Virus record (IMG/VR): IMGVR_UViG_3300035181_001974
DNA length: 64,000 bases
Source: a virus
Strand: one strand, 5' to 3'
In this document: piece after piece, positions 5,830 through 54,218 of the stretch
Numbering within the stretch: the first letter of the stretch is position 1
How the letters are laid out: each line of letters begins with the position of its first letter
Notes under the pieces: generated by a model
Database searches by the model: none
The model's input: the letters and a program-made list of their open reading frames with translations, nothing else
Told to the model about the DNA's origin: nothing
Made by a program: the position numbers and the translations under genes

Positions 5830-5980
5830 TGTGGCCCAAACTCGGCCCCCGCGTGACCCACGTGAGTGCCTGCACGGCCCAAGAAGGGGAAACCACCTCC
5901 TCTTTTTGGGTCATTCTCGTGATCCGTGGGCTCATTTGGGCCACAGCGCAATCTTTGACCCTTGATAGGTAGACTGAGAC
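5830..5980 (+). repeat. intergenic repeat element copy A (core GACCCACGTGAGTGC)
   Basis: Shares its core and flanking GGGCC/CCCATGAG units with copies at 38.8, 46.4, 47.7 and 53.8 kb. Confidence 0.55.
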
Positions 5981-6087
5981 CATGGCACAAGAACGGATTT
6001 TCGATAAGGTGGCCGACATTATCGAAGATCACTACGACGCCGGTCTACGAGGGACTTGAGCTATTGCTGTGAAATTCACCTGTCAGA

Positions 6088-6939
6088 GTGGTAGAGTCAA
6101 TCATGGGCAATCCAAAGATTCTTTGCATTGACGGCATGAACTTCCTCCACCGCGCTCGGAGCGGTTGGCAGTTGGGGTCCGCACCCGTCATCTTCAACTT
6201 CATGCGAAACTTTCGGGCACAGGTCGAACTCCATAAGCCGACCCGTGTCTACTTCGTCCTGGAGGGTCATCCGCAACAGCGTAAGGACATCCTACCGGAG
6301 TACAAGGCCAACCGCGTGGTAGAGCCCGGGACTCCCGAGCACGATGAGCTTGTGAAGTTCTTCGAGCAAGTCCACGTGATCGTGGATCACCTGAGCCAGC
6401 ACTTTCCGGTCTCTGTGGTGCGCCACCCACACTACGAGTGCGACGATACCATCTACAATCTCATCAAGCGCTCTAGCTCTGCGGTCCCGTGGGTCGTGGC
6501 ATCTAATGATTCGGATTTCACGCAGTTGTTGAACGAGTTCCCGAACGTTAGCCTCTATAACCCAATGAAAAAGGAGTTCGTTGAGGTACCCGACTACGAT
6601 TACGTCACCTGGAAGGCTTTGCGCGGCGACCCCAGCGATAACATCCCGGGCATCATCACTGACGGGGCCGCTGATCGCATCGTCAATGACCCTGAGGCGC
6701 TGTCTGACCTACTGCTGTGCGATTCGGTTATAGGTGATACGTTCTCAAGGAACTACGAACTCATCAAGTTCATCACCTGGTCCGATGATGAGGCCCTTGA
6801 GATGTCGTGCTCGCATCCGACCAAGGATTGGGAGCCACTGCGAAAGTTGTTCGAACAACACGATTTCAAGTCGCTGCTCAAGGACAAGACGTGGGACAAG
6901 TTCGTGGCGACGTTTGAACCGCTGTGGGGAGAAGGCTGA
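6088..6939 (+). CDS. 5'-3' exonuclease / flap endonuclease (RNase H-like, Pol I N-terminal-type)
   Basis: ILCIDGMNFLHRA...GDPSDNIPGI motifs typical of the 5' nuclease family. Confidence 0.7.
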   Translation: MVESIMGNPKILCIDGMNFLHRARSGWQLGSAPVIFNFMRNFRAQVELHKPTRVYFVLEGHPQQRKDILPEYKANRVVEPGTPEHDELVKFFEQVHVIVDHLSQHFPVSVVRHPHYECDDTIYNLIKRSSSAVPWVVASNDSDFTQLLNEFPNVSLYNPMKKEFVEVPDYDYVTWKALRGDPSDNIPGIITDGAADRIVNDPEALSDLLLCDSVIGDTFSRNYELIKFITWSDDEALEMSCSHPTKDWEPLRKLFEQHDFKSLLKDKTWDKFVATFEPLWGEG

Positions 6940-7212
6940 TGGCAAAGGGTGGCGAGACGGGTTACGCAGTCAACAAGACGTAGTGGTGGTTTGAGGAGGT
7001 GGTGATCCCCAATGTCATCAGCGATGACATGAGCGAACTTGCAGCAGAGATGGCTGACGAGATGGACCAACACGGGTGGGATCCCGCTGACGTCAACTGG
7101 GCTGTCGTTGAAGAAGGTCTCCGGCACAGGCCGGTGTCATCGTCAACTCACTGAAGAAGATCTCGCAGGGCTGAACGACCGGGCCTACCTATCCGTGAAG
7201 GGTAGGTGGCTC

Positions 7213-7683
7213 ATGTCGAAATTCTTCAAGGTCTTGGGTTACATCTGGTCGGCACCGGTGACGGTGTTCGGCCTTGTGTACGCTCTGCTGTTCAACCTGT
7301 TGGGCTGGTACGCTTGGTGCGGCGTCTTTGGTGATGCTCTAGTCTGGGTCGTCAAGACCGACAAGGCTCCCACGTGGCTGTTGAACCTGTGGAAGAAGTG
7401 GGCGGGTCACACCATTGGCAATGTCGTGGTGTTGAAGCAGACGCCTGCCGCAAGGCCCGTCATCCTGACCCACGAGCAGAAGCACGTTGACCAGTGCATG
7501 CGTCTTGGTGTCTTTCAGCCGCTGGTCTATGCACTGAGCTACCTAGCGCTCAAGTTTGGGTGCACGGGCAGCGATCCTTACTACTCGAACCCCTTCGAGA
7601 TCGACGCCCGACGTGCGGCTGGGCAGATCGTCGACGTCGAGGGGAGGCTCAAGCGAATTGTTGAGCAGAACAAGAAGGCCTGA
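7213..7683 (+). CDS. membrane protein with two transmembrane segments upstream of the endolysin (possible holin-like)
   Basis: Hydrophobic helices VLGYIWSAPVTVFGLVYALLF and LGVFQPLVYALSYLAL; GGTAGG-type box directly upstream of the ATG. Confidence 0.4.
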   Translation: MSKFFKVLGYIWSAPVTVFGLVYALLFNLLGWYAWCGVFGDALVWVVKTDKAPTWLLNLWKKWAGHTIGNVVVLKQTPAARPVILTHEQKHVDQCMRLGVFQPLVYALSYLALKFGCTGSDPYYSNPFEIDARRAAGQIVDVEGRLKRIVEQNKKA

Positions 7684-7703
7684 ACATCGCCTAGTTATCG
7701 ATC

Positions 7704-8609
7704 ATGGCGACAGGCATTGATGTGTCCTACGCCCAAGGCAAGCCTGCCTGGGCAAAGGTCAAGGCGACGGGCAAGATTGACTTCGTATATGCAAAGGCGA
7801 GCGGCGGTGATAAGACCGTCGATTCCTCCTTTGCATATAACTGGGCCGAGCTACCCAAAGCGGGTCTACCGCGTGGGGCGTATCACTTCTACATCGCCTC
7901 GATTGATCCGATCATACAGGCTGAACACTTCTTCAAGACGGTGGGCCCGCTCAACGACAGCGACCTACCTCCCATGCTCGACGTTGAGCAGACGAGGCCC
8001 GCCAGCAAGACAGGCGACCAGTATGCCAAGGACGTGTTGGCCTGCATCGAACATCTAGAAAAGTTGTTCGAGCGCCGCGTGGTCGTCTACACGGGCCTCT
8101 CCATCATCATTGCAGAGATGAAGGGTGCTGCACCTGAGACCCTGGCCGCCCTCGCCACCCGCGATCTTTGGTTGGCCGCCTACGTTAATGATCCAACGAA
8201 GTGGGTTCCACCGTGTTGGCAATCAAAAGGCTGGGTCATCTGGCAGAAGAGCGGAGACGTGGCGGCCGACGGCAAGCCTGGCTTCCGAATCGACGGCATC
8301 GGCAGCGTCGTTGACCTCGATGTTACTCAGGGCGCAGCCAACGACCTGGTCGACTGGATCGAAGCGTCCAAGTTGAAGAAGCCAGAGTCGGTACCCATGG
8401 TGCCCGCACCTGAGCCACCTCCGTCACCAGTTCCTCAGGAAGAACAACCCGTGCCTCCCACGCCTGAACCAGTCGCTCCGTCTCCCGATCCTCCAAAGCC
8501 CGTGCCTTCCGCACCTATCGTGCCTGGCAATCCGACGGGTTTCTTGGCAACGTTCTTCGCATTCATCAGGGCGATCTTCATGTTTCTGACGGGCCGAAAG
8601 GGTTCCTAA
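7704..8609 (+). CDS. GH25 muramidase (endolysin) with Pro-rich linker and hydrophobic C-terminal tail
   Basis: GIDVSYAQG...IDFVYAKASGG...GAYHFY is the GH25 signature; PEPPPSPVPQEEQPVPPTPEP linker; C-terminal FLATFFAFIRAIFMFL. Confidence 0.75.
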   Translation: MATGIDVSYAQGKPAWAKVKATGKIDFVYAKASGGDKTVDSSFAYNWAELPKAGLPRGAYHFYIASIDPIIQAEHFFKTVGPLNDSDLPPMLDVEQTRPASKTGDQYAKDVLACIEHLEKLFERRVVVYTGLSIIIAEMKGAAPETLAALATRDLWLAAYVNDPTKWVPPCWQSKGWVIWQKSGDVAADGKPGFRIDGIGSVVDLDVTQGAANDLVDWIEASKLKKPESVPMVPAPEPPPSPVPQEEQPVPPTPEPVAPSPDPPKPVPSAPIVPGNPTGFLATFFAFIRAIFMFLTGRKGS

Positions 8610-9419: not shown

Positions 9420-9427
9420 GGCTGAAC

Positions 9428-14903: not shown

Positions 14904-14945
14904 ATCAGCCCGGTGCCGTCTTTCGGCACCGGGCTGATTTGCATT
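14904..14945 (+). terminator. 15-bp perfect stem-loop terminator (ATCAGCCCGGTGCCG / CGGCACCGGGCTGAT) followed by TTTGCATTT
   Basis: Perfect inverted repeat read from the sequence, downstream of the AAA+ gene. Confidence 0.6.
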
Positions 14946-38985: not shown

Positions 38986-39167
38986 AGCGCCCCTTGACCG
39001 ACGCGGACATCGAGATCCTAACGGACAACGTCCGGGCACAGTCCTCGCGTCCTCTCTCAAAAGAGTTCCGCAAGGAGATTGCGTGCACAGTCGAGGAACT
39101 ATGGCGTGAGGTCAAGCGCCTGTGGCGCGCAGTGAATCTTCAACGCTGAACCTGGTAGGATAGTCTC

Positions 39168-39461: not shown

Positions 39462-39493
39462 ACCTTCATCTCTGATCCTGGTAGGATAGACTC

Positions 39494-40189: not shown

Positions 40190-40233
40190 GTGTAAAGCCG
40201 GGACTCGCTAAGTTAGGATAGAGACACCACCAC

Positions 40234-41394: not shown

Positions 41395-41407
41395 CCTAGT
41401 TACCTGC

Positions 41408-41995
41408 ATGGCGGCCTTCGATCTCGAGCTGTGGAATGCACGTGCCTGGGATCGCTTTCAAAAAGCGATCCAAGCGGGCAAGAACGCAGACCGGGCCACC
41501 AAGCGGTGGACGGAAGATCGCCACTACGTTTCGGCACTCCGCGTGGTGGTGGAGTGGTGTGAGGCCCGGTCGCTGACAGTGACCTTCTGCAAGCGCAGCG
41601 GTGGTATCTACTACACGGCTGACAAGGAGATCAAGGTCAGCGGCCGGGCTTCGCCGAAGCACCAGCTGCACATCCTCCTGCATGAGTGTGGGCACCACCT
41701 GATCGGCAGCAAGGACAAATATGAGCGCTACGGGATGGGCTACGGCAACCAGGATCCCGACGTTAAGCGTTCATTTCATCATCGAATTGACATCGTTGAT
41801 GAAGAGTTCGAGGCCTGGCACCGTGGTTGGAAGCTAGCGCGGCGCCTGGGTGCGTTGACCAAGAAAGACAAGGCAGCCTTCGACAGGACGCGGGTCGCCA
41901 TGCTGCGGACATACCTGCTCTGGGCGACGAAGGCGCCTGGATACGAGAAATACGATGACCCAGCAGAAGCAGATGACGATGCGACTGTGGCTTGA
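41408..41995 (+). CDS. putative zinc metallopeptidase (HExxH; ImmA/IrrE-like)
   Basis: LLHECGHHLIG motif. Confidence 0.4.
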   Translation: MAAFDLELWNARAWDRFQKAIQAGKNADRATKRWTEDRHYVSALRVVVEWCEARSLTVTFCKRSGGIYYTADKEIKVSGRASPKHQLHILLHECGHHLIGSKDKYERYGMGYGNQDPDVKRSFHHRIDIVDEEFEAWHRGWKLARRLGALTKKDKAAFDRTRVAMLRTYLLWATKAPGYEKYDDPAEADDDATVA

Positions 41996-42290
41996 TGATG
42001 AGCGGCCTGCGCCCTCAGGTTGGATCCACGCCAAGACAGCGGCGGGCGCGCAGCGCCTGTTGGAGACGGGCCGCGTGGTGGAGCTAAGCCTCGACCACGA
42101 TCTGGGACCTCTGAGCGCAGGCACCGGCTACGATGTTGTCTGCTGGTTGGAAGAGCAGTGCGCCCGTCAGGACTTCATCCCGCCTGAGATCATCAGCGTT
42201 CATTCGGCCAATCCCGTCGGTGCACAACGGATGCACCAGGCGATAGAATCGATTCGACGAGTCTGGCAGCAGAAGGTCGGAGGCAGCTGA
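41955..42290 (+). CDS. CPR-like (cyclic-phosphate processing receiver) domain protein
   Basis: LWLDDERPAPSGW ... LSLDHDLG ... ISVHSANPVG is the pattern typical of this phage-common small domain. Confidence 0.45.
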   Translation: MTQQKQMTMRLWLDDERPAPSGWIHAKTAAGAQRLLETGRVVELSLDHDLGPLSAGTGYDVVCWLEEQCARQDFIPPEIISVHSANPVGAQRMHQAIESIRRVWQQKVGGS

Positions 42291-42697
42291 TGCGCAACAA
42301 CAAGCTCAACGACGCCACGCGAATCTTCATCCATACGGCAATGTTCCAAGAGGGCATCGTCCCGATGGAAGACCCGACGATGGACGTCCGCCGTGCGTTG
42401 AAAGGCCTGCAGCAGGAAGATGCCCGACGCTTGAAGCGGAAGTTTCGCAAGCTGTGGCGTAAGCAGATGAAGAAGCAGCTGGTGAAGCTGCCCGAGGAGC
42501 GAAAGAAGCTCGTCAAGAACAAATACGTTGCCGTCCCAAAGAAAGGCAAGCCGACGCGACCTTCACGGAGGCAGAGGCTGGCGCGCAAGCAGGCTGTCTA
42601 CGATGAAGTCATGAAGACCAAGGTTGAGCCGATGGTCAAGCAGCTCAAGACCATCAAGCGAGAGGAGGAGTCAAGCGATGGGAAGAAAGAGGGATAG
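42290..42697 (+). CDS. highly basic protein
   Basis: 135-aa Lys/Arg-rich ORF. Confidence 0.45.
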   Translation: MRNNKLNDATRIFIHTAMFQEGIVPMEDPTMDVRRALKGLQQEDARRLKRKFRKLWRKQMKKQLVKLPEERKKLVKNKYVAVPKKGKPTRPSRRQRLARKQAVYDEVMKTKVEPMVKQLKTIKREEESSDGKKEG

Positions 42698-42875
42698 TCC
42701 GTAGGGACTTCCCATCAACCAGCGTCGCTCGGGGGTCGGGTATGGCATGGTGCATGCCCTGAGCAAATATATTTTATAAGCAGGTGAAAGGGCGAACCGA
42801 CGTAGTCCCTGTAACCTAGGCCTCGAAAATGAGGTTCGCCCCCGGACTCCACAGAGTTTCGGGGGCGAAAGTCGT

Positions 42876-43162
42876 TTAAGCGCGGCGGAGCTTTTCGGGT
42901 GTGTCTATGTCGCCGAACCAGCAACGGACCCAGCGCGATTCTGAGTTGGGCAGTAGCAGGTAGCCCTGTGCCCAGTCGACCTCGCGGGGGCAGACGTTGA
43001 AGAGGTCCTCCCGTGTCTTGCTGTCAGCACCCCAGCGCCAGCAGCCGATGACCATCGCTAAGCGGTCGGGCTCGTCCTTCCGGGACGGGTGTTCGTTGTA
43101 GATGACGAGTTCGCCCAACGCTAGGCGGGCCAGCTGCCGTGGAGAACGCTTCTTCTCAGTCA
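42876..43162 (-). CDS. hypothetical protein
   Basis: Internal Met of ORF 42876..43313; ATGA-coupled to the upstream gene. Confidence 0.4.
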
Positions 43163-43611
43163 TCAATCGGCCTGACCCAGTTGAGATCTGTGATGATGTA
43201 GCGCCCGCCGCCGACGATGAAGGTGTGGCGGACCACGCGGAGCGTGCCCTGCTTGCCCTGCTCATCCACGCGGACGGAGTCAACGTAGAGAGCGATGGCC
43301 TTGGCGCGGGCAACGGTCGACTTGTTGGGATCGTAGGTCGGATCCCAGGTGCGAGGTATGTGGACCTGCAGCAGTGGAAAGGGCGGCTGCACCACGTTGG
43401 GACCGAGCTTGACCAGCTCGAGGTCCTTCATCACCTCCCACATCGCGCCCGGGACCATGTGGGCGGCGTATAGTTCTTGCTTCTCGAGTGGGACGTCTTC
43501 CTCGTGGGTATGACGCCGAATCTTGCCAACCGGCACCGCGAAGGTCTCTGCGTCCTTCTTCCAGTTGATCGGTCCCCTACCACGTGATGAGGGTCGCTTG
43601 CCCCAGGTCAT
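43156..43611 (-). CDS. hypothetical protein
   Basis: 151-aa ORF. Confidence 0.5.
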   Translation of the reverse strand: MTWGKRPSSRGRGPINWKKDAETFAVPVGKIRRHTHEEDVPLEKQELYAAHMVPGAMWEVMKDLELVKLGPNVVQPPFPLLQVHIPRTWDPTYDPNKSTVARAKAIALYVDSVRVDEQGKQGTLRVVRHTFIVGGGRYIITDLNWVRPIDD

Positions 43612-43639
43612 GGATTTATCCTACCACACCTGTCGGTGC

Positions 43640-43675
43640 CTTTGCAACGAGTTGCACACCCGCGAGCGAGGATCA
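43640..43675 (+). promoter_or_regulatory. operator copy 3: TGCAACGAGTTGCA followed by CACCCGCGAGCG
   Basis: Same palindrome plus extension. Confidence 0.5.
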
Positions 43676-43975
43676 GGCGATGATCTTGAGGCAGGTCGAC
43701 GGGCAGTAGAAGCGCTGCTTCGTCATATCCTCACGGACCCAGCAGTTGACCCGCATCACCTTCTCGATGACGCCGGTGCAGGGAAACCCGCCACGGGCCG
43801 TGAAGCTGACGCGCTGTCCGACGCGGAACTGGGCGATCGCGGTCTCCTTCGTCGCGGTACGCTGCCGTTTGATGTTGGCGTTCCAGGCCTTGGCCAGCTG
43901 CTGCGTCTCCGTGGGGGTGAGCTGGCACGTGGCGAGGTAGTTTAGCACATCAGCGAACTTGAGGTTGGTTGCCAT
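43673..43975 (-). CDS. hypothetical protein
   Basis: 100-aa ORF. Confidence 0.45.
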   Translation of the reverse strand: MATNLKFADVLNYLATCQLTPTETQQLAKAWNANIKRQRTATKETAIAQFRVGQRVSFTARGGFPCTGVIEKVMRVNCWVREDMTKQRFYCPSTCLKIIA

Positions 43976-44063
43976 GGTTCTAGTGTATCACGATCGCGGG
44001 ATAAAATGCACACGGGGCCCGAGCGATTGCCCGAGCCCCGTGTGCGCTAGTTGTGGTGTGAAC

Positions 44064-44432
44064 TCAGCGGGCGCCGAACGCCCGGAGCTCGCGGACGAGC
44101 TGGGCCTCGATCTCGGCCTGGGACATACCGAGATTGATCCCGTGGCGTTGGCAGAGGGAAGACAGGAGACTCCCGAGCTCGCGGGCACTGGACTCGATGG
44201 GCGTCAGCTCACGGTAGACGGGCTCGACGGCGAATTTCTGGTGATCTTCCTCGGGGAAGGCATCGAGGAAGGCCGCGAGGCGTCGGAAGGCATCGCCGCG
44301 CGAGATGGGCGTCGGCTCACGGGAGGTCTGGAAGTTGCCGGACCCAGAGAAGCTAGGGTTATGGTCGACGAAGACCTGGTCACGGGTGTTGACGACGCGG
44401 TAGCCGATGATTTCGTTGGTGGTGTTGGCCAT
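44064..44432 (-). CDS. hypothetical protein
   Basis: 122-aa ORF. Confidence 0.45.
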   Translation of the reverse strand: MANTTNEIIGYRVVNTRDQVFVDHNPSFSGSGNFQTSREPTPISRGDAFRRLAAFLDAFPEEDHQKFAVEPVYRELTPIESSARELGSLLSSLCQRHGINLGMSQAEIEAQLVRELRAFGAR

Positions 44433-44441
44433 GATTAGATC

Positions 44442-44666
44442 TTACTCCGTTTCGTGGTGGATTTGCACAGGGGGAGCGACGCGGTTGACGTGATCGTAAA
44501 AGCTCGGGCCACCGTGGCGCCGACTCGGGCGGCTGTTGACCCGCGAGCGCAGCCAGGCCCAGAACTCGCGGGTGCACGGCCCGCAGACGATGAAGGTCGC
44601 GGTGTAGGCGCACCCGGTCGCGGGATGGGCGACGCCGCCGCAGGTCCGGCACTGGATGGTTTCCAT
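44442..44666 (-). CDS. zinc-ribbon protein
   Basis: CRTCGG ... CGPC. Confidence 0.4.
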   Translation of the reverse strand: METIQCRTCGGVAHPATGCAYTATFIVCGPCTREFWAWLRSRVNSRPSRRHGGPSFYDHVNRVAPPVQIHHETE

Positions 44667-44958
44667 GGTTCTAGTCTACCACACATGGACGAAAGTTTGC
44701 ACTGTGAATCTTCAAGTCCCGGCGTGTTTAGGATCTAGACATGCCTAAGCCCAAGGTCCGCACCTAGACCGTTAAGGTCATCCAACGCCTCTCGCGGGGC
44801 GTTGAGGTCGAGGCTGCGACGGAGGAGGAAGCAACAGAGCTCGCCTCCTAGAAGGCGCGGTGCCTGTCGATCAACGTCTGGAACAAAGACGTTGACGATG
44901 AGGAGATCATCACCCGCGAGATGTGAACCTTTAGTGAGGATCGTGGTAGACTAGAACC

Positions 44959-45222
44959 ATGGAAACTTCCTGCGACATCCCGGTCATCCCTGGCTTCATC
45001 TTCATCTGGAAGGATAACGTTGGCATCACGGAGGCCTCCAGCATCGCCTGCATGAGCCCAGACTGGTGCGCCCCGATGAAGCTGACGGTTCAGAGCCACC
45101 GCACCGGGCGCACCAAGGACTTCCTCTACGAGAACACCGAGGTGAACGACGGCGAGATCGCTGCCTGGATCTACAAGTCGGCCGACGAGCAGGGCACCCG
45201 GCTTCACATCTTCAATGACTGA
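44959..45222 (+). CDS. hypothetical protein
   Basis: GGTAGACTAGAACC box before the ATG. Confidence 0.45.
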   Translation: METSCDIPVIPGFIFIWKDNVGITEASSIACMSPDWCAPMKLTVQSHRTGRTKDFLYENTEVNDGEIAAWIYKSADEQGTRLHIFND

Positions 45223-45301
45223 ACGCAGTGCAAGTTCCCCAGATCACGTGATAGGCTAATCAAGCCCCCTCCAACCTTACCACCACGGAAGAGAGCACAC
45301 C

Positions 45302-45541
45302 ATGAGCATGAAGACCTCCGACTCGCCGCGCCGCATCTACTCGACCATGGGTACCCTCGCCCTCTGCCACAAGGGCGTCCTCTACGGGTTCGTCGCGGAA
45401 AAGGATGGGGAGGCGAGCGCCTTCCGCAAGGACGTCCCGGCCACCGTCGAGAGCGTCAACGACGACGGCAGCATCACGGTCAAGCAGCGCAAGCCCCACG
45501 CGAAGGCGCTGGTCGAGACCTGGTTCGAGCTCGATGCCTGA
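45302..45541 (+). CDS. hypothetical protein
   Basis: SD GGAAGAGAG before the ATG. Confidence 0.45.
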   Translation: MSMKTSDSPRRIYSTMGTLALCHKGVLYGFVAEKDGEASAFRKDVPATVESVNDDGSITVKQRKPHAKALVETWFELDA

Positions 45542-45653
45542 AATCATCAACGAATCTTTGCGAACTTCGTGGGTGTAAAGCACCTGCGGTGTGACATAGA
45601 TTCAACCTACAAGCTGGCACCCACCAAAACCAAGGATTCACGGAGAGAACACC

Positions 45654-46301
45654 ATGAGTGACAAGTCGGACGAGAAGACCTCGAAGATCGATGCAGCGAT
45701 TGCGGCGGCCAAGGCCCGCGCAGCGGCCAAGGCCAAGGGCGAGACCGCGACGAAGACCGCGGAGACGAAGGCGGAGAAGCCCGCGAGGGCAGCTGCGAAG
45801 CCGAAGCTCACCGACGAAGAGCGCGAGGCCCGCAAGACGAAGCTCGAGGCGGAGCGCGCGGAGCGCAAGGCTGCGAAGACAGCGGCCCGCGAGAAGGCCC
45901 GCGCCGAGAAGCTGGCAGCCCGCAAGCCGGCGCACATGAGCAAGGTCACCAAGGCAGGCGAGAAGCTTCCGCAGCTCGCGGGTGCCGCGCAGATCCTCTT
46001 CGGTGATGCGACCGCGAACCTGGGCCGCGCCGACCTGGCGAGCCTGGCGCTGCACATCCAGCACTTCAACCGCGTCAAGGCGACGGAGCGAGCACTGGAC
46101 ACGAGGATCGAGGCCGGTCATACGGTCACCATCGTTGGCGGCGACCCGCGCTTCATCGGCAAGACGGGTACGGTCACCAAGGCGCAGCGCATCCGCTGCT
46201 ACGTCGAGATCGAGGGCGTCAACAAGCCGGTGTACTGCTTCACCTCGGACGTCGAGCCACTGGCTGCGGCCGATCGTGAGGCGACGGGCACGGACGCCTG
46301 A
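45654..46301 (+). CDS. histone H1-like Ala/Lys-rich protein with C-terminal KOW-like motif
   Basis: AAKARAAAKAKGETATKTAETKAEKPARAAAKPK low-complexity N-terminus; GHTVTIVGGDPRFIGKTGTV KOW-like; SD GGAGAG. Confidence 0.55.
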   Translation: MSDKSDEKTSKIDAAIAAAKARAAAKAKGETATKTAETKAEKPARAAAKPKLTDEEREARKTKLEAERAERKAAKTAAREKARAEKLAARKPAHMSKVTKAGEKLPQLAGAAQILFGDATANLGRADLASLALHIQHFNRVKATERALDTRIEAGHTVTIVGGDPRFIGKTGTVTKAQRIRCYVEIEGVNKPVYCFTSDVEPLAAADREATGTDA

Positions 46302-46329
46302 TTCGCAGAAGTTCACAAGGTAAACTCCA

Positions 46330-46520
46330 ACAGTCAAGGCCGCGATCCTCACTGGGTCAGGCCTTGACCCCGTTTCGGGCCACGGTCACAGCCCCCGTGG
46401 GACCCACGTGAGTGCTTTCATGTCAGGGTAATGGGTTACCCCACTTGGGCCCGTGAGTATTCACGTGTGTCATTGTGCAAATCGTCTGTGACTTGGGCCT
46501 ACAATAGGCCTCGCGGACAA
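46330..46520 (+). repeat. intergenic repeat element copy C (includes a TCAAGGCC/GGCCTTGA hairpin)
   Basis: GGGACCCACGTGAGTGCTTTCATG, GGGCCCGTGAGTATTCACGTG, TGTGCAAATCG. Confidence 0.5.
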
Positions 46521-46648
46521 GTTAGAAGCGCATGGCCCGCCTCGAGCTGGTGCTGATGACGCTCGTGGATCACGTGGCGTGGCTGGTGGGCACCGTCCAA
46601 TGTCCGTTGCGAGTGCAAATTCACATCTGAACATGGTAGGATAATCTC

Positions 46649-46867
46649 ATGGTCAACCAAGGCACCCGTCGGATCCTCGAGAGCACGGCCTGGGACATCA
46701 CGATCGGCAGCGGCATGGCCGAGGAGTGGGCTGAACTGGGCCACGAGCCCGACCACGCAGTCCGCCGCACTGTCTCGGGCGTGCTGGGCCGTGATCCCAG
46801 CCACGAGGAGTGGGACTACTTCTGCCGAGAGTGGCGTGATTGCCTCCAGCGTGCCGCGCAGCTGTGA
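46649..46867 (+). CDS. hypothetical protein
   Basis: GGTAGGATAATCTC box before the ATG. Confidence 0.45.
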   Translation: MVNQGTRRILESTAWDITIGSGMAEEWAELGHEPDHAVRRTVSGVLGRDPSHEEWDYFCREWRDCLQRAAQL

Positions 46868-46973
46868 ACTTCAACAACGAAACAAGGTACAACAGAGACA
46901 TGGCCAAAACCCGCGAGCAGATCAAGCAGGCGATCCTCCACGAGGGGCCCTTCAAACGCAAAGAGAAGAAGTG

Positions 46974-47186
46974 ATGGCGATCCCGAAGATTGAGTTCCCG
47001 ATGACGCAGGACCAGGTCGCGCCCGCGGTTCAGAGCGTCCTGGAGCACATCAAAGCGTTGGAGACCGAGCTCAAGCTCAGTCGAGCGCTGCTCGCTGAGA
47101 CTCGCGAGTGGTGCTCCCACCCGGGCCTCGGGAACAATGCCAGCTGCCCGTGCTGCGGCAAGTACTTCAGTCGCTACGACGACTGA
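46974..47186 (+). CDS. small Cys-cluster protein (CPCCGK)
   Basis: Start MAIPKIEF; GTGATGG overlap with the upstream mini-ORF. Confidence 0.4.
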   Translation: MAIPKIEFPMTQDQVAPAVQSVLEHIKALETELKLSRALLAETREWCSHPGLGNNASCPCCGKYFSRYDD

Positions 47187-47193
47187 CCCAAGC

Positions 47194-47228
47194 AGTGCAA
47201 TGAGTTGCAAGCCCGCGAGCGCTAGAAG
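47194..47228 (+). promoter_or_regulatory. operator copy 4: TGCAATGAGTTGCA followed by AGCCCGCGAGCG
   Basis: Same palindrome plus extension. Confidence 0.5.
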
Positions 47229-47277
47229 CTCTCACGGGGCTGTGTATTTCTCCCAGAAGATGAGGTAGACTAGACCC

Positions 47278-47643
47278 ATGATCCAACTCGGTTACATCTA
47301 CGCCAACATCGCAGGTGACTCGCGGTACACGGATCGCATGGAGGTCCAGCTCGACGCAGATACCCGCCTGGTTCACGTGATCGTCTCTTCCAGCTCGCCG
47401 GTTGGCGGCATGGACGGATCCGGCGACACCACGGGTTTCGAGGAGCGCCTCCACATGAAGGCAAAGTCCTCGTCCCCGAAGGACGTGCTGAAGCTCGTCA
47501 AGTCCATCATCGCGGACGAGCGGTGGAACTTCAAGCGTTACGGGCAGCCCACCAAGCGCTTCACCTGGCGCACGTTCCACGGTTTCAAGCAGGGCCTCAA
47601 CCAGACGCTGGTCCAGGAAGCGCTGATGTGCTCGGTCGACTGA
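47278..47643 (+). CDS. hypothetical protein
   Basis: GAGGTAGACTAGACCC box before the ATG. Confidence 0.45.
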   Translation: MIQLGYIYANIAGDSRYTDRMEVQLDADTRLVHVIVSSSSPVGGMDGSGDTTGFEERLHMKAKSSSPKDVLKLVKSIIADERWNFKRYGQPTKRFTWRTFHGFKQGLNQTLVQEALMCSVD

Positions 47644-47699
47644 GGGGAGAGAGAGGGGAAGAACACGAGCCAGAACAACGAACTCGATGCAATGATCGA

Positions 47700-47846
47700 T
47701 CACTGCCCAAGCGGGACCCCTGACCGGACCCACCAGTGACCCCCGTGAGTGCCTTCCCGGTCAGGACAGGGTTTCCTACCTACCGGGCCTGAGAGGGCCT
47801 CACGGGTGACGGTGCAAATCCTTGGTGAACTGAGGTAGGATTGTCT
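47700..47846 (+). repeat. intergenic repeat element copy D
   Basis: GTGACCCCCGTGAGTGCCTTCC, GGGCCTGAGAGGGCCTCACGGG, GGTGCAAATCC. Confidence 0.5.
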
Positions 47847-47847
47847 C

Positions 47848-48141
47848 ATGGCACGGATCAAGGCCCACCGAGAGTCTCTCCACACCACGATGGCATACGT
47901 CTTCTCGGACAACCCATTTGACGATCGCGTCTACCGGCTGGACAACCGTGGACGCTGCACCTGCGAGGGCGCTCAGCGCTTCGGGAAGTGCCGCCACACC
48001 TCGGAGATCGCCAAAGCCATCACCCAGTTCTTGGCCACCGCGAAGTGGAAGTGCACCGTTGACGTCATCTTCACGCCCTGGTCGGCCAAGGAGCTCGGGC
48101 TCACCAACGTGGAGGGTCTCACGATCCGCGCGACTCCGTGA
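47848..48141 (+). CDS. SWIM zinc-finger protein
   Basis: CTCEG...RFGKCRHT (C-x-C ... C-x-H). Confidence 0.5.
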   Translation: MARIKAHRESLHTTMAYVFSDNPFDDRVYRLDNRGRCTCEGAQRFGKCRHTSEIAKAITQFLATAKWKCTVDVIFTPWSAKELGLTNVEGLTIRATP

Positions 48142-48173
48142 ATCTTCAACATCGATCGGGATAGAATCAAATC

Positions 48174-48527
48174 ATGGCCCACCCCGCTCGCATCAAGCTC
48201 TCTAGCAAGGTTCGCTCTGAGATGACCGCGAAGGTCCGCGCGTCCCTGGACGCCAATCCTGCCGCGGTGGAGCGTGCCATCAAGGTCCTCTACGAGCGCC
48301 AGACCACTTCCGAGAAGGCGACCGAGAGCACTCACGTTAACAACCAAGTGGGCGTCCGTCACAGTCATGGGCATCGCATTGCCTACTACGGCAAGTGGCT
48401 GGCCCGCGGGAACCACCTCACCGGCATCCACCTGGAGCAGGCGCGGAAGCTGGCCCACACATATGCCCGAACCCAGCTCGCGGAGCTCGCGGCAGTCAAG
48501 GCGGGCCTGGTGCAAACTCCCGGTTGA
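48174..48527 (+). CDS. hypothetical protein
   Basis: Junction element upstream. Confidence 0.45.
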   Translation: MAHPARIKLSSKVRSEMTAKVRASLDANPAAVERAIKVLYERQTTSEKATESTHVNNQVGVRHSHGHRIAYYGKWLARGNHLTGIHLEQARKLAHTYARTQLAELAAVKAGLVQTPG

Positions 48528-48545
48528 TCGTGGTAGAGTAGACAC

Positions 48546-48722
48546 ATGGCCACCTGGAAGAAGATCGCCAACAAGCACTGGGAAGAAGCCGGCCGCTACA
48601 CCAGCAAGGACTGTGGCGGTGGACTCAGCAAGCCCGCGGCCCGCATCAAGCGCGCCATCAACCGCCGCGCCAAGCGTATCGAGGCCCGGGACGCCATGAA
48701 GGAGCAGCTCGATGCCGCCTGA
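48546..48722 (+). CDS. small basic protein (58 aa), below the ORF-track cutoff
   Basis: GGTAGAGTAGACAC box immediately before the ATG. Confidence 0.4.
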   Translation: MATWKKIANKHWEEAGRYTSKDCGGGLSKPAARIKRAINRRAKRIEARDAMKEQLDAA

Positions 48723-48950
48723 CATTCGCATCTTCCGCGTTCTCTTCCGCAAGCTCGGTGCGGTCGCAGTGAAGCCCAGCGCCATCAAGATCAAGGCCGC
48801 CACCGAAGGTGAGGCGATCAAGCGGGCCCGGCGTTGGCTGAGCCACGATATGCTGATGCTCGACGCAGAGATCCTCTCGAGCAAGGAGATGCTGGGCGCG
48901 GCTCGGTGGGCGCAGTGAACCTTCGCCTCTGAACAGGGTAGGATAGATTC

Positions 48951-49178
48951 ATGGCAATCACCGAACGAGACTTCAAGTGTGCGGTCGCGGCGGCGTGGGA
49001 AGGGCTCGCGAGTGACTGTGGCTCGCAGGACGGTGAGGGCGCGGTGGATCACCTCGAGAGCATTTTCTTCGCACTGGCGGAGGACCCTGACCTGGATCCT
49101 GAGACGCGCTCGCGGGTGGAGCGCTTCGAGCCCGAGCTGAAGCGGTGGGCTCTGGCAGAGCTGAAGAAGTACGGTTGA
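48951..49178 (+). CDS. hypothetical acidic protein
   Basis: GGGTAGGATAGATTC box before the ATG. Confidence 0.45.
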   Translation: MAITERDFKCAVAAAWEGLASDCGSQDGEGAVDHLESIFFALAEDPDLDPETRSRVERFEPELKRWALAELKKYG

Positions 49179-49333
49179 GAGACAGTGAACTCTCCACCAC
49201 GATTTGGATAGAGTAGACTCACTGGCTGGTCACGGTCTCCCAGCCGAATCAAAAAGAGACCACTTCAATTCGAGCAATTGGGATGCAACGCTCGTAAAAA
49301 ACTTTCCCTTCAACTCTCTCCCACATCGTCAAA

Positions 49334-49425
49334 AAGGCTCGCGGGTAGCGGCGCCCTCCAGGGTTGACGGTGAATCGACTAGGTTCGACTCCTGGGTGGG
49401 GGACCAGATCAGAGGCGCCAGTTTC
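49334..49425 (+). other. degenerate tRNA-like element with intact T-arm, acceptor 3' strand and encoded CCA
   Basis: CTAGG-TTCGACT-CCTGG then GTGGGGG-A-CCA; a 5' strand CTCCCAC can pair with the acceptor, but the D and anticodon arms do not fold canonically. Confidence 0.3.
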
Positions 49426-49483
49426 AAGACTGGTCCCGAGTGCTTAGGTGGTGTAGAACCATTCTACAATATCAAAGAATATT

Positions 49484-49714
49484 TTGATGCCCCGTGAGAA
49501 GTTCCTGATGCTGGTCTTCGCAGCCTTGATTGGGCTGACAGTGTTGCTCTTCTTGATGACGGCGCGGGCCGCAACGAGCAACTGCGAGTTCATCAAGGAT
49601 CCCGACGGGCGGAACTTCTGCCTGGCGACAACCAAGAAGGACCCGAGCTGGTGTGAGTTCATCAAGTCCGCGGACACCAGAAACCTCTGCCGTGCCACAG
49701 TGAAAAAGCCCTAG
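49484..49714 (+). CDS. secreted small Cys-repeat protein
   Basis: Signal peptide LMLVFAALIGLTVLLFLMTARA; internal repeat CEFIK-D/S-xDxRN-F/L-C-xAT-xKK x2. Confidence 0.5.
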   Translation: MMPREKFLMLVFAALIGLTVLLFLMTARAATSNCEFIKDPDGRNFCLATTKKDPSWCEFIKSADTRNLCRATVKKP

Positions 49715-49735
49715 CTCTGAGCATAGGATTAACCC

Positions 49736-49990
49736 ATGATGAGCAAGCCCAAGAAGCCCGCCTTGTCGAAACAGGAGTTCAACACCGCGATCACGCAGCT
49801 GTTGGCGTCGCATAGCGTCATGGCCGACCAGCTTACGGCTGCCGCGCAGGACGATCGCTATGCCCAGATGCTGAACGCCCTCCGCGAGCACGATCCCTTC
49901 CTGGCCGACCTGATCCTGGACGCGGATACCGGCATGGTCGACGGGTACCAGCGAATCGTCCGCTACTTGAGCTCCCGCGTCGATAACTGA
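49736..49990 (+). CDS. hypothetical protein
   Basis: 84-aa ORF. Confidence 0.4.
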   Translation: MMSKPKKPALSKQEFNTAITQLLASHSVMADQLTAAAQDDRYAQMLNALREHDPFLADLILDADTGMVDGYQRIVRYLSSRVDN

Positions 49991-50068
49991 GATGAACCTT
50001 GTTCCACAGTTCAACCGGGTGACTCAGTCCCGGTGAATCTTCAACTGCGATCGGGGTAGAGTAGAGAC

Positions 50069-50311
50069 ATGAGGATCTACGAACGTGTCAGCAACAAGAT
50101 CCGCCGCGACAGTGGCTTCAAGGCCAACGGTGGTGTCTTCCTCCCGCAGTCCCGCATGCGGCACATCCGCTGGGAAGAGGCGGTGAAGCACTCGCAGAAC
50201 AACCGCAGCAAGGGCACGCGGCACTACATCAAGGGCATGCAGTTCGTCCATTGGGACTGTACCTGTGGAGACATCGAGTGCCTCGCCAACCCGCGCCCGT
50301 CTGGGCGTTGA
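50069..50311 (+). CDS. hypothetical protein
   Basis: GGGGTAGAGTAGAGAC box before the ATG. Confidence 0.45.
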   Translation: MRIYERVSNKIRRDSGFKANGGVFLPQSRMRHIRWEEAVKHSQNNRSKGTRHYIKGMQFVHWDCTCGDIECLANPRPSGR

Positions 50312-51056
50312 TGTGTGAGGTAGCGCGCGACACAGGAAGCTCGATATCATGCGAGTCGCCGGAGGGATGCGACTTTATGATGGAAAGCAGGGACGTGCTC
50401 AGGACCGCCGCCTCGCGGGCCCTTCATCGCGGAAGAACCAGACTGCCCGGTTCACGGGCACGTAGCACAGGCTCAAGACCGCGAGCAGGAGAAAGTCCTT
50501 GGAATCCCGGGTCACAGAGCTGGAATCTCAGTTTGCGATTGCACTGCAGCGGATCACGGACTTGGAGAGAGAGAGCTGCCCGAGCCTCGACTGTGACCTG
50601 AGGCGGACATAGGATCATCAGCGGAACCCCGACATGTTGTGATGAATCCTCTGTGAACTCCCTCTGACTTGAGTGGTACAGTAAGATCATGTTCAACAAA
50701 GGTCGCACTCCCTTCCTGGGCAACGTCGATTGGCGCGAGGTCACGATCTTTTTCATCGTGATGAATCTGCTCATCGTGAGCAGCAGCGTCTTCATCTTCT
50801 TCATGATGAAGTGAACCCGTCTGACCCTCAAGACAGGACAAGCTCGTGAAGACTTTCGAATACAATGTCATGCGTCTGAGTCCTCTCGAGTTGCCTCATG
50901 GCAAGCTCGAGATCTTCCTGAAAGAAAAGGGTGACCAGGGTTGGGACCTGGTCACGGTCATCGTGCTTGGGTCCACGTGGTGGTACCACTTCAAGCGTGA
51001 ATCGCACGTTGCTGAGTGAACACTAACCCTGCGACATGATAGGATAGAGTAAAGCC

Positions 51057-51311
51057 ATGAAGAACAGGACCCTCAACATCGTCATCTCCGGACCCTGCGC
51101 CTCGGGCAAGACCTCCTTCGCTCGGGCCCTACAGATCCTGTGCAACGAGTACAACATCCCCTTCACGCTCAACGACGATGACATCGACGTCAACCGCGAG
51201 TTCGACACCGACGAGGAGAGCGACCGCCTCAAGCGCGTCTTCACTGCCTTGGGCGAGAGCGGGAAGGTCACCGTCAACATCAAGACGGTGCAGACGCACC
51301 ACGAGCCTTAG
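51057..51311 (+). CDS. small P-loop-like protein
   Basis: IVISGPCASGKTS; GATAGGATAGAG box upstream. Confidence 0.4.
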   Translation: MKNRTLNIVISGPCASGKTSFARALQILCNEYNIPFTLNDDDIDVNREFDTDEESDRLKRVFTALGESGKVTVNIKTVQTHHEP

Positions 51312-51952
51312 AGCCAGAGCGCCCGCAGTGGCAGCATTGCGGGCTGAGAGCCACGGTTGCTCAGTCGATGACTTCTTCAAGGCCCAATGACGGACGATAG
51401 TAAGCGATTGCTTGCAGCGGGAGCCTGCGTTCTGATCATCTATGCCTTTCTTGTCTTGAACGAGAAGCCGCAGACGAAGCTCGGCTCGCTGGTCAAGCAC
51501 ATGGTAAAGACGGGACAATGGAACGCAGACTGACTGTGAATCTCCACGGGCGGCGTGAGACATGATCTAAACACGGTCAAGAAGCCCGCTGTTAAGAAGA
51601 CTGCCTCCATCGTGGCGCGGACTCTAAGAACGTCCGGGTGACCCTTACGGTCAATGTGTGCTTGGTCCACGGTCCACAACGTCAGCTGGGCAGAGACAGA
51701 GATAGAGACAGAGATCCGTATCTGGAGATACGCCGCGAGGCAATGAGAAGGTGCGACGATCATGGAAGTCGCCACTTCAGGCACCGCGGCGGGACGATCG
51801 ACGTCTATGCTTCTTTCCCGGGTTCGCCTCCCGTGACGGGTCCGAACTCCGACTGCGAGGCTGCCTCACGGGAGGTGTCGGCTTCACGGTCCTCTGGAGA
51901 ATTGTCGCGGAAATCTGTGCAATGTGCGGGGCGATCGTGGTAGACTAGACTC

Positions 51953-52600
51953 ATGCCGATCATCGAGACCTACGCCAATCCGAACACCGGCAACGTCGAG
52001 CGGTCTGAGATTACCCACCTCGGGCGTGTTGTCAAGGTTCGCAGCTACGTGGCCATCCGGAACTTCTCGGACACGCTCGACTACACGGACTTCCGCAGCT
52101 GCACCGTCACGGAGGCGCTGGTCTGGCTCGGGCGGGAGCAAACAACGATATCCGGGCTGCCCGAGTCCGAGACCAATCCTGTGGTGCAGCTCGCTCCCGC
52201 CGACCGGTTCGCCTGGGTCGACTGCACCAACATCTTCACCTGGCGTGGCTTGCCCCACCGCGAGCCCTCGGTCGACTACATCGCGCTGGCGATCCCGGAA
52301 CTGTTCCAGGACCTGGAGGCATGGACCGCGATCCAGGAACAGAACGCCAAGGAAGCCGCTGAGAAGCAGGCGAAGCGGGAAGCAGAAGAGCAGGCCCGCA
52401 GGCTGAAGGAAGCCCGTGACCGCCCCGAGGTGGGCAAGCAGATGCGGGTCAAGAGCGGCAGCAAGGTGAAGCCCGGGACGCTGGGCACCATCGCCTACAT
52501 CCACCACAGCGGCCGCGTGCTGCTGAAGCCGGACGCCAGCTGGCGGGACCGCAATGCCCAGGGCGACTGGATCGACCCGCGGCACCTGGAGGCTCGGTGA
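51953..52600 (+). CDS. hypothetical protein
   Basis: GTGGTAGACTAGACTC box before the ATG; its stop lies inside the conserved TGAATCTTCAAC junction. Confidence 0.5.
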   Translation: MPIIETYANPNTGNVERSEITHLGRVVKVRSYVAIRNFSDTLDYTDFRSCTVTEALVWLGREQTTISGLPESETNPVVQLAPADRFAWVDCTNIFTWRGLPHREPSVDYIALAIPELFQDLEAWTAIQEQNAKEAAEKQAKREAEEQARRLKEARDRPEVGKQMRVKSGSKVKPGTLGTIAYIHHSGRVLLKPDASWRDRNAQGDWIDPRHLEAR

Positions 52601-52631
52601 ATCTTCAACAGCGAACCGGATATAACTGGAT

Positions 52632-52913
52632 CATGAGCAAGAACACCAAGCCGGTCACGTACAAGGTCAAGGGCTACTACGAGTGCCTCTGCTGCCCGTG
52701 CTGCGGCCACGAGGAGGACTGCTGCCGCGATGAGGAAGTCTTCCTGACGGAGGGCCACGCCACGGAGGCCGAGGCTAAGTCGGCGGCCAAGGCGTTCCAC
52801 TCCACGCGGCGCCGAGGGGCCGACGTGGTCACGTACGACCTGGTCCGCGTTGGTCCGCTGGGCGGCGAGCGGCTGGTCTCCTCTGTCCGCTACAACGTGG
52901 AGAACTGGTGACG
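52632..52913 (+). CDS. Cys-cluster small protein (CLCCPCCGHEEDCC)
   Basis: 93-aa ORF; shares a 32-bp near-identical segment with the truncated copy at 53364..53546. Confidence 0.45.
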
Positions 52914-53363
52914 CAGGGTGCGCCGAAGACCGCGCAAGTCTCCCGACTGATTTGGGGTGTCTGGATAGAGATCATGGAAGCCGCCCAGCAGCAGATGATG
53001 TACCCGAGTTCCAGTCGACCCTGAGGGTCCGCCGTCGCGGTCAGCGCGAGAGGCGGGGAGTTGCTGCCGCTTTTACATCGTCGTCTTCAATGACTGAGCA
53101 CGACTCAGGTGTGTTGCCTGCTCTTTGCCGCGCCCCGCCGGCGGCTCGGAAGTACTCTCTCCGTTCTTCGGGCGACAGGCCGGCGAGCGGAGACGTGCTC
53201 TTCATCATGGCAGTCAGAGGGTCGCCACCCTTTCGCCCGGCAGTGACGGTCGCCTCGTAGGAGCCGCGGTGCCCGTGAAGCCATTGCGAGCTCGAAGCAT
53301 CCGGTCTCGAGCTGCCACGCTCGTTCAGCAGTAGACAATTCTTCCTGCGAGTAGCAATTACAG

Positions 53364-53546
53364 ATGACGACGGAGACAACCACACCTCTTCCGGTCACTG
53401 TCGTAGTGCCTCAGCGAACCGCGACGTGCCGCTGCCATCGCGATGAGGAAGTCTTCCTGACGGAGGGTCACTACACGCGGCACCGGGGACCGACACCGTC
53501 ATGTACGACATGGTTCGCTGTCCGCCACAACGTGGAGATGATCTAG
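53364..53546 (+). pseudogene. truncated divergent duplicate of 52632..52913
   Basis: GCGATGAGGAAGTCTTCCTGACGGAGGG shared; both ends are similar but the middle is deleted. Confidence 0.4.
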
Positions 53547-53549
53547 TGA

Positions 53550-53720
53550 CGTGGGGGGGGGCGCCGGCCCCACCCGCGAGAGGGGCTCTTCAACGGGGCC
53601 ATCAGGGCCCCCTATTTCAGCCCCCTAAAAGGGCCCCTTCGGGACCCCCTAAATGGCCCCCTAAATAGGGGGCGGGGCCCCGCCCCTTCTGGCAGCCTTT
53701 GTGGGGCCTTCTCGGGAGGC
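53550..53720 (+). repeat. GC-rich iteron/palindrome hub: G9 homopolymer, 4x CCCCCTAAA(A/T)GGG-like repeats, perfect GC palindromes
   Basis: gtgggggggggcg; ccccctattt / ccccctaaaa / ccccctaaat x2; GGGCGGGGCCCCGCCC and GGGAGGCCTCCC palindromes. Confidence 0.55.
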
Positions 53721-53876
53721 CTCCCGCGCTAAGGCATCACATACGACGCAGGCAATTTCCCGATCGAACTGCCTTTCCCTCTGGGCCCACTGTGCGCAAA
53801 TTTCACGCGGGATTTTTCGAGAAAATTCAAGTGCCCTCCTGTGAAACTGTGCACCAACATGGGATACACATGAAAC

Positions 53877-54218
53877 ATGGTCAACCACACCCGTGAAGAG
53901 CAGCTCCTCAGGACCGACGTCCTCCTAACGTGTTCGCTGTTAAGTCTCCACGGGCCCGAGGCCCGTGACCTAGCCGCCTACTCCCTGCGGACCCTGGGCT
54001 TCACTCCTGGAGCCCATGTGGGCCGCAAGCTGGCAGAGGGATCCCGCGAGACCCTCGAGTGGTATGCAGGCCAGCTACTTAGCCTCTGCGAATCGCGAGA
54101 CTCGTTGGATCTTTGGTTCGCGGTTGAGGCACTGTTGGATCAGGCCGACCACTTTACACGCGAGCTCGCCTGTGATGCAGACCGCGAGCTGCGCAGCACC
54201 GTCAAGGCCGCAGAATGA
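53877..54218 (+). CDS. hypothetical protein
   Basis: 113-aa ORF preceded by a partial copy of the intergenic repeat element. Confidence 0.4.
   Translation: MVNHTREEQLLRTDVLLTCSLLSLHGPEARDLAAYSLRTLGFTPGAHVGRKLAEGSRETLEWYAGQLLSLCESRDSLDLWFAVEALLDQADHFTRELACDADRELRSTVKAAE

Follow-up and report, generated by a model that had tools for sequence, protein, structure and literature searches.

Oriented boxes upstream of predicted leaderless promoters in a huge uncultured phage, most likely a regulatory DNA module

What are the intergenic elements that recur in a 64,000-nt stretch of viral DNA (IMG/VR record IMGVR_UViG_3300035181_001974; the whole stretch is called the window below), and do they act as DNA or as RNA? 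A sequence-only reading of the window had described them as a family of 120-150-bp repeats with four full copies and a partial fifth, and had proposed complex promoters with arrayed binding sites or small structured RNAs among their possible roles. The real entity is a conserved box inside a conserved layout, not a repeat of 120-150 bp, and its most likely role is that of a regulatory module at the DNA level rather than of a structured RNA.

The box, its copies and its layout

The four copies (c5830, c38810, c46330 and c47700, here copies 1 to 4) do share a core, as had been claimed. The core GACCCACGTGAGTGC is exact at 5855 and 46401, has one mismatch at 47738 and two at 38871, and lies on the + strand each time. 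The four window sites with at most two mismatches compare with 0.25 expected, and none of 100 shuffles reached four. The box is asymmetric and about 25 nt long, G(G/T)GACCC(A/C)CG(T/G)GAG(T/G)GC(C/T)T, and a promoter follows it in each copy. The promoter scores given below are those of a weight matrix built from 18 sites and used with a cut-off of 12 bits.

5855..5869, + strand: copy 1, core box GACCCACGTGAGTGC, from the core scan, inverted repeats and folding.
5946..5984, + strand: copy 1, promoter with GCGCAA at 5946, extended -10 GGTAGACT with TAG at 5970, and predicted leaderless ATG at 5982; 14.4 bits.
38812..38897, + strand: copy 2, direct GGGCCCATGAG units at 38812 and 38837, core GACCCACGGGAGGGC at 38871-38885, inverted TCATGGGCCC at 38888-38897.
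38944..38997, + strand: copy 2, promoter with GTGCAA at 38944, -10 TAAACT at 38968, and ATG at 38980; 17.1 bits.
46401..46471, + strand: copy 3, core at 46401-46415, direct unit GGGCCCGTGAG at 46447, inverted core-like arm AGTATTCACGTGTGTC at 46456-46471.
46475..46534, + strand: copy 3, atypical promoter with GTGCAA at 46475, TACAAT at 46500 (25-nt offset), and ATG at 46532; below 5 bits with the ungapped matrix.
47738..47806, + strand: copy 4, core GACCCCCGTGAGTGC at 47738-47752, inverted unit GGGCCTCACGGG ending at 47806, with the word CTCACGGG at 47799.
47812..47850, + strand: copy 4, promoter with GTGCAA at 47812, GGTAGGAT with TAG at 47836, and predicted leaderless ATG at 47848; 23.8 bits.
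53770..53880, + strand: general-family promoter with GTGAAAC...GGGATACACA, TGAAAC, and ATG at 53877; no core box, not a family member.

The similarity does not reach the length once assigned to it. A repeat search (family D5) stretched the common stretch to 43 nt, with 72-74% identity; when all 37 intergenic regions were compared by blastn, only 19-25 nt proved common, which correspond to the core, and the five-way alignment of the copies gave a mean column identity of 51% with unalignable flanks. On formal alignment the similarity thus collapsed everywhere except in the core and the promoter. The partial fifth copy drops out: it lacks the core, and what it holds is a general-family promoter (GTGAAAC...GGGATACACATGAAACATG) for gene 53877, with a GGGCCCAC word beside it. 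No further core copy was found in the 9.6 kb to the left or the 2.4 kb to the right of the window, and the three exact-core matches in IMG/VR were all set aside as chance, mostly in apparent coding DNA. The E-box-like CACGTG is intact in two of the four window copies, but it reads CACGGG in copy 2 and CCCGTG in copy 4 and is not a conserved feature. The sub-repeats are real, with GGGCCCRTGAG exact at 38812, 38837 and 46447 and an inverted copy at 38887. Terminal inverted repeats of the kind found in miniature inverted-repeat transposable elements or Correia elements, common to all copies, were not found, the flanks being unalignable and no separate search for target-site duplications having been made. 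A small open reading frame (ORF) starting from a GTG inside the core was also rejected, its length and sequence being unconserved and copy 2 having no such GTG. An unrelated metagenome contig, L038 (Ga0123355_10096331), carries at ~3300-3500 tandem 24-nt units with G(A/G)CCCACGTGAG(G/T)GC; this array uses the words of the core, which may be a coincidence.

The layout is more regular than the flanking sequence. In all six known copies, four in the window and one each in the related contigs L131 and L145, the box has the orientation of the promoter. The distance from the start of the core to the -35 box is 91 nt in copy 1, 73 nt in copy 2 and 74 nt in copies 3 and 4. The intervening spacer has a high GC content, holds many inverted repeats and is unconserved between copies. 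Only four of at least 32 window promoters bear the box.

The ORFs downstream of the four boxes encode 25, 5, 32 and 97 aa, which bears out the tiny genes reported earlier, and the first three look truncated, each with another family promoter within 200 nt after it. Copy 1 precedes 5982-6059 (25 aa) and copy 3 precedes 46532-46630 (32 aa), which overlaps the next promoter. In copy 2 the ORF from 38980 has five codons (MASAP, stop) and is followed in another frame by a 51-aa ORF, 38994-39149, of moderate coding score; 38980-39149 may be a frameshifted gene, and an independent assembly across this stretch gives the identical sequence. The gene after copy 4, 47848-48141 (97 aa), is intact, and its protein has no homologs at E<=1e-5 besides itself. 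No Pfam match was obtained for the 25-aa ORF or the 38994-39149 product, and the latter was dismissed as a clear paralog of 45302-45541. Copy 2 does not follow a + strand gene; it lies between divergent genes, the minus-strand RadA/KaiC-like ATPase gene (37733-38497) and plus-strand genes. The 215-aa gene preceding copy 3 has no IMG/VR relative, and the two 215-aa proteins compared with each other proved unrelated.

The promoter family and the abundant word

The 3' third of the elements belongs to a promoter family of which the matrix found 32 window sites (0.8 expected); in almost every one an ATG stands 12 nt after TAG. The consensus is aGTG(A/C)A..T-N13-tGGTAG(A/G)nTAG, with the extended -10 box 24 nt after GTG and the ATG 12 nt past the T of TAG. 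The sites are densest at 39000-53000 on the + strand, and minus-strand -10 boxes are located at 30638, 34527, 36712, 38533, 43623, 43987, 44444 and 44678. By the repeat families D1-D3 and a pattern search, the GTGCAAA box, GGTAG box and ATG noticed earlier at the ends of the copies correspond to the -35 box, the extended -10 and the predicted leaderless start. They are present as described, with 24 nt from GTG to TAG and 12 nt from TAG to ATG in copies 1, 2 and 4, but copy 3 deviates (25 and 32 nt), having TACAAT, a 26-nt gap and no GGTAG box. Its mRNA is predicted not to be leaderless because ATG 46532 lies 32 nt past the start of the -10.

The point of initiation is predicted from general bacterial promoter geometry. 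Since the spacing puts the ATG at this point, most family genes should yield leaderless mRNAs, with transcripts that begin at or beside the start codon. Two boxes at fixed spacing, together with a start codon at the predicted start, are consistent with leaderless promoters of the sigma-70/sigma-A type, and a few sites of the family have leaders and GGAG-like ribosome sites. The strongest family promoters score ~30-36 bits, and the box-linked ones of the window 14.4, 17.1, 23.8 and less than 5 bits, the latter fitting the consensus less closely than most of the family. This phage group has a -35-like box of its own, GTG(A/C)AA(A)(G)T. The strict promoter pattern had no match in IMG/VR, JGI metagenomes or GTDB genomes; the IMG/VR relatives contain 26 copies of GTGCAAAG (1.4 expected), together with -10 boxes that abut the ATG.

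The RadA/KaiC-like ATPase gene has a predicted leadered mRNA, which contrasts with the leaderless genes around it, and its leader CCACCACCACGGGG / CCCACCACCAAGGAG is kept in all three phages:

38498-38535, - strand, window: ATPase leader.
1168-1200, L131: ATPase leader.
~9990-10010, L145: ATPase leader.

A further repeat family, D6, looks like an operator. It consists of the palindrome GTGCAAT-GAG-TTGCAC and then a small hairpin CCCGCGAGCGCGGG, contains a CCCGYGAG-type word, and is found at or just upstream of promoters on either strand:

36888-36926: D6 copy.
38561-38599: D6 copy.
43642-43680: D6 copy.
47195-47233: D6 copy.

What the earlier reading called the units of the repeat are variants of CCCG(C/T)GAG, and this word is abundant well beyond the elements. 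No 8-mer of the window is more over-represented than the pair CCCGCGAG/CTCGCGGG (31 copies, 2.9 expected, z 16.6); CCCGTGAG is fourth among 8-mers (16 against 2.5), CCGCGAG is the top 7-mer (69 against 13.4), and CCGYGAG has 103 copies. The 47 CCCG(C/T)GAG sites are divided between 23 on the + and 24 on the - strand, and within genes between 13 sense and 12 antisense. They are located in genes, in all frames, and in intergenic DNA, carry no flanking information and peak at 44-48 kb; CCCG(C/T)GAG and CCGYGAG words are concentrated in the 34000..56000 region, which is dense in small ORFs and promoters. A word so blind to strand and frame points to a signal that is read on the DNA duplex. A similar excess was found in L145 (11 against 0.8 and 10 against 0.8 expected). 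No excess of CCCGYGAG was found in L147, in the pooled IMG/VR relatives or in the genome's own left flank; L151 has no such words, and L149 has only six in 9.2 kb.

The word is the most unusual part of the finding. It could be the recognition word of a new DNA-binding system that marks the early small-ORF region on either strand and within genes too, the four boxes being high-affinity, promoter-coupled nucleation sites, and we regard this proposal as doubtful. If true, it would be a genome-wide regulatory or protective code of a huge-phage lineage. Such a code would be unlike stoperators, whose action depends on orientation, and unlike Chi sites, which show no concentration in a single region.

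Conservation in relatives and the competing readings

The metagenomes were scanned with the pattern core + GYGCAA, and the matches listed, nearly all of them chance, included a single true relative, L131. This contig shows the divergent layout of copy 2 by a RadA/KaiC-like ATPase gene, the ATPases being 49% identical, and its element consists of the core GACCCACGTGAGGGC, GTGCAA 79 nt later, GGTAGATT and an ATG; it also has three tandem CC(C)GCGAG units ~11-12 nt apart, about one helical turn. The ATPase family has 940 matches, many at 75-88% identity. The closest relative is L145, whose ATPase is 88% identical and which is syntenic with the window at 36-46 kb. The orthologous place in L145 reads CCCACGGGCCTCACGGG, 40 nt, CCCGTGAGGCCCCTGTGGG, and the core-like CCCCGTGAGGCC stands 79 nt before a strong promoter (28.6 bits). 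The remaining intergenic sequence cannot be aligned among the three phages. Selection therefore acts on the box, on its orientation and on its spacing, which are kept while the surrounding intergenic DNA is unalignable. The box was not found in ATPase relatives at 72-84% identity (L137-L144, L147, L149 and L151), which share the promoter words. Other assemblies of the phage are identical to the window, except for one 99.5% fragment outside the elements, and for this reason offer no within-population covariation to use. Homologs of the nucleoside deoxyribosyltransferase-like gene upstream (at most 61% identity) were rejected as a source of comparison, belonging to phages with ordinary leadered genes and neither promoter nor core.

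This conservation bears on whether the elements are functionless, decaying relics of duplicated intergenic-plus-promoter cassettes, their similarity inflated by the abundant CCCGYGAG-type words. The collapse of similarity beyond the core, the tiny or broken ORFs after three of the four copies and the presence of the unit-building words everywhere in the region would all fit such relics. A 15-nt core present four times on one strand with at most two mismatches is far beyond chance, however, and the box, orientation and spacing persist in phages with ATPases of only 49% and 88% identity, where the rest of the intergenic DNA cannot be aligned, so we consider relics very unlikely.

Some copies fold well. 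The core of copy 1 lies within a 118-nt imperfect hairpin, 12-nt perfect arms at 5829-5840 and 5935-5946 enclose the element, and the + strand fold has -63.9 kcal/mol. The single-sequence z-scores of copies 1 to 4 are -5.4, -1.8, -3.3 and -0.8 on the + strand and -1.9, -1.8, -1.4 and -0.8 on the - strand. A structured RNA from the + strand, such as a small RNA, an RNase processing site or an mRNA-stabilising hairpin, would thus draw on the two copies that beat shuffles on the + strand, on stems that hold G-U pairs, and on one double change from A-U to C-G between copies 3 and 4 in the pairing of the core with the downstream arm. But copies 2 and 4 are not significantly structured, the elements are no outliers among 340 intergenic windows, in which other regions fold better, and Rfam gave no match at the gathering score nor at E<=5. 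The alignment and covariation check that had been proposed for this role went against it, since RNAalifold on the five copies gave a consensus of -7.1 kcal/mol with a covariation penalty of +3.7 and pairs broken in one or two of the five sequences. The inverted repeats are specific to each copy in sequence and position: the inverted partner of the core is downstream in copies 3 and 4, where the core pairs with this arm, and upstream in L145, while in copy 2 the core is in a loop, bracketed by TCGGGCCCATGA/TCATGGGCCCGA. No family promoter was found upstream of any core, and half of the copies have no co-directional gene upstream. The structured-RNA reading is rejected as the main explanation, and we judge it most improbable. 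A shifting position of the inverted partner is typical of clusters of sites and not of one RNA fold.

The same stems could be terminators. In a PeSL-like mobile cassette (promoter-early stem-loop, a composite terminator/promoter motif of T4-type phages) a terminating stem-loop would be fused to an early promoter, and short homology would shuffle small accessory genes. Consistent with this, the elements sit among many small ORFs, each with its own promoter, strong local inverted repeats lie directly before the -35 box in each copy, and three of the four downstream ORFs look truncated; PeSLs are such motifs in the hyperplastic regions of T4-type genomes (PMC2839356, PMC4122927). At the one locus that could be compared in three phages, the gene after the element also differs in each: a 5-codon stub and 51-aa ORF in the window, a homolog of 51953-52600 in L131 and the ortholog of 39168 in L145, with no breakpoint mapped to the motif. 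This difference also bears on recombination hotspots, a further role suggested in the earlier reading, which the elements may have. On the other hand, no element stem has a T-run after it. The terminator scan of 36000-54500, which includes copies 2, 3 and 4, showed no enrichment of terminator-like sites (14 against 12.2 expected) and none in these three copies, and in copy 1 the T-run belongs to the 3' arm of the inner stem instead of following that stem. Three of the six copies (copy 2, L131 and L145) lie between divergent genes without a co-directional upstream gene to terminate, the box is on only four of at least 32 promoters, the shared identity of 15-25 nt is short for homologous exchange, and no indel breakpoint was mapped to the box. 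We therefore hold such a cassette to be unlikely. The one strong canonical terminator of the region lies at 44008-44045 on the - strand, with a 17-bp stem GCACACGGGGCTCGGGC...GCCCCGTGTGC and then ATTTTAT.

Could the box be a promoter in its own right, for a phage RNA polymerase or an alternative sigma factor, giving a second, later start ~100 nt upstream of the leaderless one? T7-type promoters typically appear as a short, conserved and asymmetric stretch of intergenic DNA ahead of genes. The ~20-25 nt of the box are conserved, asymmetric, strand-locked and intergenic, like the promoters of single-subunit phage RNA polymerases, and are conserved in two relatives, and L007, a contig of a distant huge phage that shares only the nucleoside deoxyribosyltransferase-like family, encodes a sigma factor of the extracytoplasmic function (ECF) type. 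Yet neither an RNA polymerase gene nor a sigma gene turned up in the window genes examined, no -10-like element downstream of the box is common to all copies, the L145 version is poorly conserved outside CCCCGTGAG, and the near-constant distance to the next -35 box would be needless. This second start is improbable in our view.

The reading of the elements as complex promoters with arrayed sites, proposed from the outset, fits best in its promoter part, its conserved box and its clustered words in both orientations; the binding of a protein is the part that we infer. Our tentative preference, held with less than even confidence, is that a protein binds the upstream part of the element and so controls a subset of (weaker) promoters. 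Each element would be a two-part regulatory region acting as double-stranded DNA: a promoter of the main family of the phage with a predicted leaderless start, and upstream of it a putative control region formed by the oriented ~25-nt box and flanking CCCG(C/T)GAG-type words, direct and inverted. The box starts 73-79 nt (once 91 nt) before the -35 box. A sequence-specific protein, from the phage or the host, would bind the box and neighbouring words and would set the activity or timing of the promoter subset, by activation, repression or insulation, and the copy-specific hairpins would be a by-product of the same word occurring in both orientations. The constrained distance between box and promoter, with an unalignable spacer in between, counts for this control region.

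Several observations weigh against it. A box-binding protein was not found; the sole nearby hint is a sub-threshold Fis-type helix-turn-helix match (HTH_8, 17.8 bits against a cut-off of 22) in the gene at 36935-37282, which follows the D6 copy at 36888. Six copies are known in all, four of them from one clonal genome, and three of the four window boxes precede tiny ORFs (25, 5 and 32 aa). The spacings (73/74, 79 and 91 nt) lie 6 and 17-18 nt apart; these steps are not multiples of a helical turn and argue against an activator strictly bound to one face of the helix. The box-linked promoter of L145 is strong (28.6 bits), so that a general need of weak promoters for the box fails.

Known systems and the surrounding DNA

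The finding is a variant of the promoter-associated regulatory repeats of phages, which are already known in T4-type phages and mycobacteriophages. By layout and genomic setting, the closest analogue is the PeSL of T4-type phages. In each case a composite motif that recurs between genes couples a stem-loop with a promoter of early type, and both lie between small accessory ORFs in a plastic region of a large phage in which neighbour genes vary among relatives. Unlike the PeSL, only a 15-25 nt box is conserved here, the whole motif reaching 51% column identity when tested for conservation; the stems are copy-specific and without T-runs, half of the copies are between divergent genes, and a minority of promoters bear the motif. 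The promoter is GC-rich and predicted to be leaderless, whereas that of the PeSL is an Escherichia coli sigma-70 early promoter.

The stoperators of cluster A mycobacteriophages are asymmetric sites of 13-14 bp that lie in one orientation in transcribed DNA, are bound by a phage regulator, the immunity repressor, and stop elongation (PMC9283540, PMC6550527). Like them, the boxes are short asymmetric sites repeated in a phage genome with an orientation tied to transcription, and a short word is present at many genome positions. But the oriented box has only four copies in 64 kb and lies upstream of promoters, and the abundant CCCGYGAG shows no orientation bias, so the elements were not classed as stoperators; a repressor was not found either.

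The p4 sites of phi29 upstream of the late A3 promoter are an example of an activator/operator cluster. As in clusters of this type, sites at a set distance upstream of the -35 in a subset of promoters would control timing; unlike in these, the box is farther upstream (centre ~-102 to -120 from the start) and its spacing is out of helical phase between copies. Housekeeping promoters of the actinobacterial type have a -10 of TANNNT/TAGRRT, and leaderless genes are frequent with them. The present promoters, with -10 TAG(A/G)nT, a G/TG ahead of it and an ATG 6 nt past the hexamer, are together with their predicted leaderless genes reminiscent of actinobacterial hosts; the difference is the -35-like box, which is peculiar to this phage group.

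Huge uncultured phages are known almost solely by their gene content, and their transcriptional signals are largely undescribed. The window yields a clear promoter grammar for leaderless genes that related contigs of a large family have in common, a subclass of promoters marked by a conserved box upstream, and a strongly over-represented 8-mer confined to one lineage and one genome region. Nothing in these results overturns current ideas. The signals could serve early-gene prediction, reporter design and the search for the regulator, and may help explain how accessory-gene regions are organised or shuffled.

The window (GC 53-64%) is part of a huge uncultured phage. Contigs of 0.2-1 Mb carry its proteins (longest seen, 309,481 nt), and it encodes GroEL, a major-vault-protein-like protein, AAA ATPases and glycosyltransferases. 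A megablast of the window at 45-49 kb found no close GenBank phage at the DNA level. The vault-like protein has 859 aa (30710-33289, - strand), combines the major-vault-protein shoulder and repeat domains with a Band 7 domain, and shares 40-42% identity with proteins of LR756500, LR756501 and LR756503, phages of 462-735 kb. LR756500 was tried and rejected as a comparison genome, having 24% GC and no signals in common with the window (LR756501 likewise); it does share the vault-protein-like gene.

Among other features are a GroEL-type chaperonin gene (15430-17037), a protein with a ribosomal L7/L12 C-terminal domain (55051-55635) and three tRNA genes, one Ile-GAT and two Tyr-GTA (63486-63979). 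Two long stretches have no convincing gene, 52912-53876 (965 nt) and 54219-54850 (632 nt), and a 46-nt repeat joins 52719-52764 with 53432-53477 at 87% identity. A perfect 16-bp inverted repeat, AATCAGCCCGGTGCCG-5nt-CGGCACCGGGCTGATT, lies at 14903-14939 between an AAA ATPase gene and the genes upstream of GroEL and has the top fold z-score of all intergenic windows (~-6 on both strands).

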